A stretch of 64,000 nt of DNA, from assembly GCF_050920415.1 (NCBI RefSeq), contig NZ_CP169309.1. One strand, 5' to 3'. Shown here one piece after another: positions 23,578-23,862 of the stretch (the stretch's first letter is position 1; the number at the start of each line of letters is the position of its first letter). The translations under genes and the position numbers were made by a program. Source of the stretch: Escherichia coli (GTDB lineage Bacteria; Pseudomonadota; Gammaproteobacteria; Enterobacterales; Enterobacteriaceae). The notes beneath the pieces were generated by a model, which saw only the letters and a list, made by a program, of their open reading frames with translations, ran no database searches and was not told the origin of the DNA.

Positions 23578-23862
23578 TTACGAATCCCCGGAGAAGGTGG
23601 AAACACGGCTGTAAGCCACACCCGCCATCATGCTGAATTAGCAGTTACGCACGGAGTCTTCATGCCAGCGGGTATAACTGTAACGGGTAAGCAGGCGATT
23701 CCTGTCTCCTGCATAGCTGAATGACGTCACCAGCCCCAGCGTGTCCGTAAATTCATAGCGGTATTTCACATTGAACCCGGTTAAATCATCACTGCCGGAC
23801 ATATCAGAACGGGCATGAAGATACCCGGCACTCAGTTTTGCCGGTAGTTGTGGCATCTTCAT
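23578..23862 (-). pseudogene. Lom/Ail/PagC-family outer-membrane protein gene remnant
   Basis: Translation KLSAGYLHA...[24 protein letters not shown]...RWHEDSVRN matches the Lom family; no signal peptide, in-frame stop after SVRNC, internal deletion, truncated after STFSGD. Confidence 0.7.

Follow-up and report, generated by a model that had tools for sequence, protein, structure and literature searches.

A fragment of a lom-type gene in a small, probable lambdoid prophage scar between serT and yccA of Escherichia coli

The cryptic prophage remnants of Escherichia coli K-12 are lambdoid prophages eroded by deletion, in which scattered pseudogenes and att repeats persist. In strain ECOR29, a complete lambdoid prophage of ~49 kb lies between serT and yccA and carries an intact 199-aa lom gene in the same orientation as the fragment described here. 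Its order is right end, tail fibres, lom, J, tail, head, terminase, lysis, cargo and tRNAs, continuing with methylase, Q, replication, immunity, exo, int and attR. A lambdoid prophage occupies serT in O157:H7 as well, with the arrangement serT, an espV fragment, tccP2, tail fibres, lom and J. Thus, whether intact versions of the gene occur at serT in other strains, a question raised by a first-pass annotation of our sequence, is answered by ECOR29 and O157:H7. The neighbouring gene yccA has been named as the place where Sp4 and some Stx2e, Stx2k and Stx2a prophages are inserted (PMC9431244), and serT is listed among the prophage sites of STEC, some of which hold prophages in tandem (PMC8767318). 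Intact Lom proteins have been reported to promote the adhesion of lysogens (review PMC8065619).

The DNA analysed here (the window) is a stretch of 64,000 nucleotides of an E. coli chromosome with the order torS-yccM-csp-gfc-etk-appCBA-hyaFEDCBA, serT, islet, yccA-tusE ... ompA ... ssu. The islet comprises 2.65 kb (23380–26033), is bounded by serT and a duplicated serT 3′ half (Table 1), and has a G+C content of 40.8% compared with ~50–51% in its flanks. The start of yccA is found at 26237, and the distance between serT and yccA amounts to 2.86 kb here versus ~200 bp in K-12. Beyond the distal serT copy come a serT terminator of K-12 type and the native sequence upstream of yccA, and comparison of positions 25974–26400 with K-12 revealed 97.9% identity. 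Next to the complete serT, the non-coding segment that opens the islet is 85% identical to the ECOR29 stretch between serT and the last tail-fibre gene (2965–3375 of the extracted locus) and matches O157:H7 up to 23434. Terminator hairpins of serT are present at both ends, a phage-supplied one at 23387–23414 (GGGGTTACCAAATGGTAACCCC) and a K-12-type one at 26035–26062. We note in passing that the functional serT is now served by the hairpin of phage origin, GGGGTTACCAAATGGTAACCCC, and that the K-12-type variant stands at the far end of the islet, after the displaced tRNA half. The integrase stub near that end shares 52 of its 57 residues (91%) with residues 283–339 of the integrase of the ECOR29 serT prophage (E = 2e-34) and is labelled 'integrase, missing N-terminus' by PGAP; from the stub through to yccA, the islet DNA is 87% identical to ECOR29. 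Since the islet contains no intact int, xis, regulatory, replication or structural gene, neither excision nor the production of particles would be expected.

Table 1 Features of the serT–yccA islet (positions refer to the window)
Feature	Position	Strand	Basis or remark
serT, tRNA-Ser(UGA), integration target	23292..23379	+	ARAGORN; Rfam tRNA 57.5 bits
Left att repeat (serT 3′ half)	~23325–23379	+	starts in anticodon loop
Phage-variant serT terminator and non-coding prophage right end	23380..23577
lom pseudogene fragment	23578..23862	-	Ail/Lom profile match and alignment to intact lom
Lom-homologous DNA	23583–23836	-	codons 31–99 and 116–130 of 199
74-aa ORF	23638–23862	-	same frame runs on past TAA, closing at 23578–23580
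Borrowed ATG mini-ORF	23837–23862	-	J–lom spacer origin
J (tail-tip) 3′ remnant, ~last 108 codons	23868..24192	-	90.3% identity to ECOR29 J 3′ end
RefSeq 'hypothetical protein' WP_157945130.1 (139-aa chimera)	23939–24337	-	artefactual chimeric ORF
Contiguous lambdoid late-regulatory piece	24193..25698	-	ST866 / Stx-phage matches
STnc100-family sRNA, full-length	24284–24476	-	Rfam RF02076, 111.7 bits vs gathering score 47
tRNA-to-STnc100 slot	24477–24785		~310 bp AT-rich DNA
45-aa hydrophobic ORF inside slot	24626–24763	-
tRNA-Gly(UCC)	24786–24856	-	ARAGORN and Rfam; looks intact
tRNA-Arg(UCU)	24860–24936	-	ARAGORN and Rfam; looks intact
Degenerate tRNA(CAU)	24937–25010	-	homologous to Met/Ile tRNA of Stx phages and ECOR29
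115-aa ORF (PGAP: 97 aa, WP_024166241.1)	25287–25634	+
Tyrosine integrase 3′ end, last 57 codons and stop	25699..25869	+	ECOR29 match
Right att repeat (displaced serT 3′ half)	25975..26033	+	2 mismatches to 23325–23379 in tRNA part

The largest piece of the islet is a block of late-regulatory DNA, which occurs with 86% identity between the methyltransferase and nanS-p esterase genes of an intact ST866 prophage. Its tRNA genes align to the tRNA clusters of phage ASU11 and of ECOR29. Scores of 45 bits and 61.5 bits were obtained for tRNA-Gly(UCC) and tRNA-Arg(UCU), respectively; in the tRNA(CAU), the acceptor and T stems are broken and ARAGORN gives no call. The STnc100-family sRNA, with a terminator hairpin at 24296–24313, belongs to the few elements of the scar that are still intact; STnc100 and PasD sRNAs have been linked to Stx-type phages in a 2026 preprint (10.64898/2026.05.13.724894). 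Stx phages (ASU11, 75/02 Stx) carry their stx genes (stxAB) between the tRNAs and an STnc100-like segment. As the corresponding slot of the islet contains no more than ~310 bp of AT-rich DNA, in which a 45-aa ORF lies, the ancestor appears to have possessed the cargo architecture of an Stx phage without toxin genes. The 115-aa ORF, which has a hydrophobic N-terminus and lies in surroundings of 31% G+C, is kept at the same place in the intact ST866 prophage, on the strand opposite to the late genes, and may represent a moron. Pfam and PHROG scans of this ORF, the 45-aa ORF and the 139-aa chimera revealed nothing meaningful.

The lom fragment is situated directly downstream of a remnant of the tail-tip gene J, as is lom in lambda, M8 and ECOR29. 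This remnant has retained its native stop codon (23868–23870), 5 nt before the borrowed ATG of the fragment, is truncated on its 5′ side at 24192 and, in the alignment to M8, has lost 4 bp from a CAGA repeat at ~24032/24033, which shifts the frame. A comparison with lambda J yielded no significant match. The remnant was identified as J by its DNA and by the continuity of the reading frame in ECOR29, where J is a 1115-aa ORF, and its C-terminal receptor-binding part is a variant different from that of lambda J. The annotated protein WP_157945130.1 begins in the STnc100/terminator region, continues through J sequence read in frame and ends in J read out of frame; given the truncation of J at 24192 and the 4-bp frameshift, we regard this ORF as a chimeric accident. 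A separate observation concerns the annotation of J elsewhere: PGAP flags gpJ as 'incomplete, missing C-terminus' in several genomes (M8, ECOR29, SCU-111), despite the continuous 1115-aa ORF of ECOR29. The variant receptor-binding segment seems to lie outside the annotation model, and those J genes may be miscalled pseudogenes.

The first-pass annotation, which was made from the letters alone, had described a close match to the Lom family over the first β-strands. This match was borne out by the Pfam profile Ail_Lom (PF06316), which hit the 74-aa ORF with E = 2.4e-29 and 103 bits (cut-off 23) and, when the fragment was read through the stop, reached E = 2.3e-34 and covered profile positions 30–126 of 199. 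PHROG 108 ('Lom outer membrane protein') likewise matched the fragment (E = 1e-24). All three peptide strings quoted in that annotation are present and its coordinates were exact to the base; the strand, now assigned, is minus. Across the 252 retained nucleotides, identity to intact lom amounted to 91.3% for M8, 89.7% for ECOR29 and 83.3% for O157:H7. The comparison with lambda Lom and Ail/OmpX that had been suggested supported the family assignment but not a closeness to lambda Lom itself, which shares 37% identity over 60 aa only. We therefore dropped the description 'close to lambda Lom' for 'close to 199-aa EHEC-type Lom'. By descent, the fragment can be placed, as judged from these alignments, in the Ail/Lom family, where it falls among the EHEC-type variants of 199 aa in the phage Lom subgroup. 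As a pseudogene it is ordinary and nothing novel: public annotation (RefSeq) already flags the equivalent, the counterpart of 23641–23841 in strain MFDS1022581 being recorded by PGAP as 'Ail/Lom family outer membrane beta-barrel protein; incomplete; missing N-terminus and C-terminus'. A PDB search additionally returned chain 9wso_C (206 aa), entitled 'Outer membrane protein lom', an experimental Lom structure that is usable for strand mapping.

The lesions were read from a base-level alignment to the intact J–lom region of M8, and 84 of the 199 lom codons are left. A deletion of ~190 bp (junction 23837|23836) has removed the J–lom spacer with its promoter/RBS region together with lom codons 1–30, including the signal peptide; we read the lost spacer as having held the J terminator hairpin and the lom RBS. 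The first nine residues of the fragment, MKMPQLPAK, are not Lom sequence and stem from a mini-ORF of nine codons in the spacer, which reads MNMPQLPAK* in M8 and which the deletion joined in frame to lom codon 31, giving rise to a misleading ATG start. This fusion arose by chance. Further downstream, CGT TGG has become TGC TAA, so that Trp96 is now a stop codon (TAA, 23638–23640). Exactly 48 bp (16 codons) are missing in frame between two 9-bp direct repeats, GATGGCGGG, which encode both 'MAG' motifs. A single copy survives (23621–23629), which would be the usual signature of slippage or a short-homology deletion. Homology to lom stops after STFSGD at 23583, after codon 130 of 199, with 69 codons missing and the frame closing at a TAA (23578–23580). 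Relative to ECOR29, this 3′ truncation marks one border of a deletion of ~2.3 kb, by which both tail-fibre genes were lost as well and lom was joined to the non-coding right end of the prophage. Moreover, Q78L, D84Y, R95C and W96* are changes confined to the fragment at positions where the lom genes of M8, ECOR29 and O157:H7 agree. The missing signal peptide, the in-frame stop, the internal deletion between FS-MAG repeats and the end of the frame after STFSGD had all been listed in the first-pass annotation, and each was confirmed by this alignment; the loss of function proposed there is supported.

BLAST searches placed the right end, lom, J, the tRNA region, int and attR of the islet on the ECOR29 prophage in colinear order and on the same strand. 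The fragment is almost certainly the dead lom remnant of a lambdoid prophage that once lay between serT and yccA, and this reading is much stronger than lom alone would have allowed, since the J 3′ end, the late-region piece, the integrase 3′ end and attR are preserved too. The lambdoid ancestry that the first-pass annotation had assumed for the islet was hence substantiated by the att repeats, the J and int remnants and the colinearity with ECOR29. The decay most probably proceeded as follows. A phage would have integrated site-specifically into the 3′ half of serT, and the tRNA half duplicated in this way would correspond to the att repeats. The prophage, ~45–50 kb in size by comparison with ECOR29, would have been cut to 2.65 kb by three large deletions: one taking the tail-fibre genes and the 3′ 69 codons of lom, one extending from the nanS-p/lysis region through most of J, and one from the methylase/Q region through most of int. 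After or alongside these events, smaller lesions would have been added, namely the ~190-bp deletion at the 5′ end of lom, the TGG>TAA nonsense change, the 48-bp loss through slippage or illegitimate recombination at the 9-bp repeats, and a 4-bp repeat slippage in J. The erosion of the serT-integrated prophage would have been passive and driven by deletion. We infer the order of these events and the slippage mechanism from the lesions. The exact ancestor and the deletion sizes can likewise be estimated only from relatives of 85–93% identity, as our search for an intact prophage more than 95% identical to the remnant found none.

In 4664 of 5426 complete E. coli genomes, the serT–yccA site is empty; in the other 762, it was not recovered as one contiguous match. 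The exact islet (100% identical) was encountered in two of the 5426, MFDS1022581 and N96, whose sources are a Korean food isolate and a Tibetan pig; between the window and MFDS1022581, there are 2 mismatches in 25 kb. In both genomes, PGAP treats the Lom piece as an incomplete pseudogene and the integrase piece as partial. A search for less-eroded intermediates of the islet retrieved none, the only two genomes that carry it being identical.

Rather than a single prophage, the islet might comprise the remnants of at least two successive serT elements, or have been shaped by recombination with resident prophages. Indeed, the best relatives vary from piece to piece, with M8 for lom/J, ST866 for the late-region block and ECOR29 for the right end and int; the lom/J piece is closest to the M8 prophage near yciE/ompW (92.5%), not to the ECOR29 serT prophage (~90%). 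Tandem prophages at some STEC sites (PMC8767318) would also be in line with such an origin. However, all four pieces are ordered and oriented as in one lambdoid genome, only a single pair of att repeats is present, and piecewise best matches are the normal signature of lambdoid mosaicism. We thus consider a composite origin unlikely and assume the decay of one prophage, whose pieces could have been assembled by recombination between phages before decay set in.

A different question is whether the scar has been kept for a reason, either through host domestication of what alone is still intact in it, tRNA-Arg(UCU), tRNA-Gly(UCC) and the STnc100-family sRNA, or because the lom, J and int stubs serve as homology anchors for superinfecting lambdoid phages. 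We judge this to be quite improbable, and even if one of these readings were true, the lom fragment would still be a passenger. A possible selective retention of the two tRNAs and the sRNA is the only mildly interesting point left.

What the fragment itself could still encode is limited. It lacks an N-terminal Sec signal peptide, as codons 1–30 are deleted and MKMPQLPAK has no hydrophobic core. A complete eight-stranded barrel (~170–180 mature residues) in one ORF is absent as well, with 84 of 199 codons, a 16-codon gap and a TAA at codon 96. Homology ends at codon 130, and the C-terminal strand with its aromatic ending (...GVGYKF) is not included. This C-terminal aromatic motif is the outer-membrane assembly signal and is needed for assembly of the barrel. 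Without the upstream region and RBS, the signal peptide and the C-terminal strands, with a stop at codon 96 and 16 codons lost, the remnant, as far as can be read from its DNA, cannot make a Lom protein and would be a functionless passenger of the scar. It is probably not expressed, and the adhesion role reported for intact Lom cannot apply to it. One might nevertheless propose that the deletion has created a new small protein, namely the 74-aa product of the ORF at 23638–23862, which would be cytoplasmic, devoid of a signal peptide and composed of Lom strands 1–3. The ORF is indeed uninterrupted, ATG-initiated and in frame with a pre-existing mini-ORF start; yet a search for a sigma-70-like promoter upstream of it on the minus strand found none, no convincing Shine-Dalgarno sequence is present, and an accidental in-frame fusion has a one-in-three chance. 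Furthermore, a partial β-barrel without an export signal should be unstable or tend to aggregate, PGAP classes the locus as a pseudogene, and its presence in only 2 of 5426 genomes gives no sign of spread or conservation. A functional small protein is therefore highly improbable.

Descent from a chromosomal gene of the Ail/OmpX/PagC type instead of a phage gene was also considered, since proteins encoded on the chromosome belong to PF06316 too and, among solved structures, OmpX and Ail rank next as relatives. A structure-library search, for which the fragment's intact relative served as query, matched OmpX (1qj8 group) and Ail (3qra) at E ~1e-18 only. By contrast, intact prophage lom genes share 89–93% DNA identity with the fragment overall. 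The stretch homologous to lom sets in at 23836, 31 nt past the native stop of J, and this position behind J is just that of lom in lambda and other lambdoid prophages. Synteny and nucleotide identity to prophage lom refute this origin, which we find scarcely conceivable. That the stop and the deletions are sequencing or assembly errors in an intact lom, for which no support was found, has a practically negligible probability and is refuted by lesions that are large (190 bp, 48 bp, >2 kb) and identical in the window and two independent complete genomes, with 100% identical islets in strains from different sources.

For annotation, the fragment should be recorded as a pseudogene of lom that lies in a prophage remnant, and the ORF at 23939–24337 should not be treated as a gene. 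Beyond correct annotation, its importance is small. The islet nonetheless shows, cleanly and on a small scale, how a prophage decays by deletion at serT/yccA, a known attachment site, and could mark the lineage of the few strains in which it occurs.

Among known Lom proteins, the closest to the fragment are the EHEC-type 199-aa variants of the ECOR29 serT prophage (WP_116987278.1), M8 (WP_073535238.1) and O157:H7 (WP_001230444.1), with 83–91% nucleotide identity over the retained codons. Like the fragment, their genes lie directly downstream of J, and those of ECOR29 and O157:H7 also share its site and orientation. Unlike them, the fragment has lost its signal peptide as well as 16 codons in the interior and 69 at the C-terminal end, has a stop at codon 96 and carries Q78L, D84Y and R95C. 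Lambda Lom (NP_040601.1, 206 aa) has the Pfam family and the gene position (J–lom–stf) in common with the fragment, but belongs to a different subgroup with longer loops and is 44–48% identical to the intact 199-aa variants. Ail of Yersinia and OmpX of E. coli/Enterobacter, virulence-related eight-stranded outer-membrane barrels, are members of the same superfamily, but are chromosomal and shorter (148–157 aa mature), have no phage link and are not close to the fragment at the DNA level. With regard to the islet as a whole, prophages of the Sp4/CP-933M type and Stx2e/2k/2a prophages share its attachment site and its orientation, their tail-fibre/lom/J end being the one next to serT. Its late-region block displays the Stx-phage layout of tRNA, cargo slot and STnc100. 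Of a genome of these prophages, the islet keeps ~5%, and stx, effector, structural and regulatory genes are missing. Although much smaller (2.65 kb) than the cryptic remnants of K-12 and devoid of an intact protein gene of known function, it is the same kind of object.
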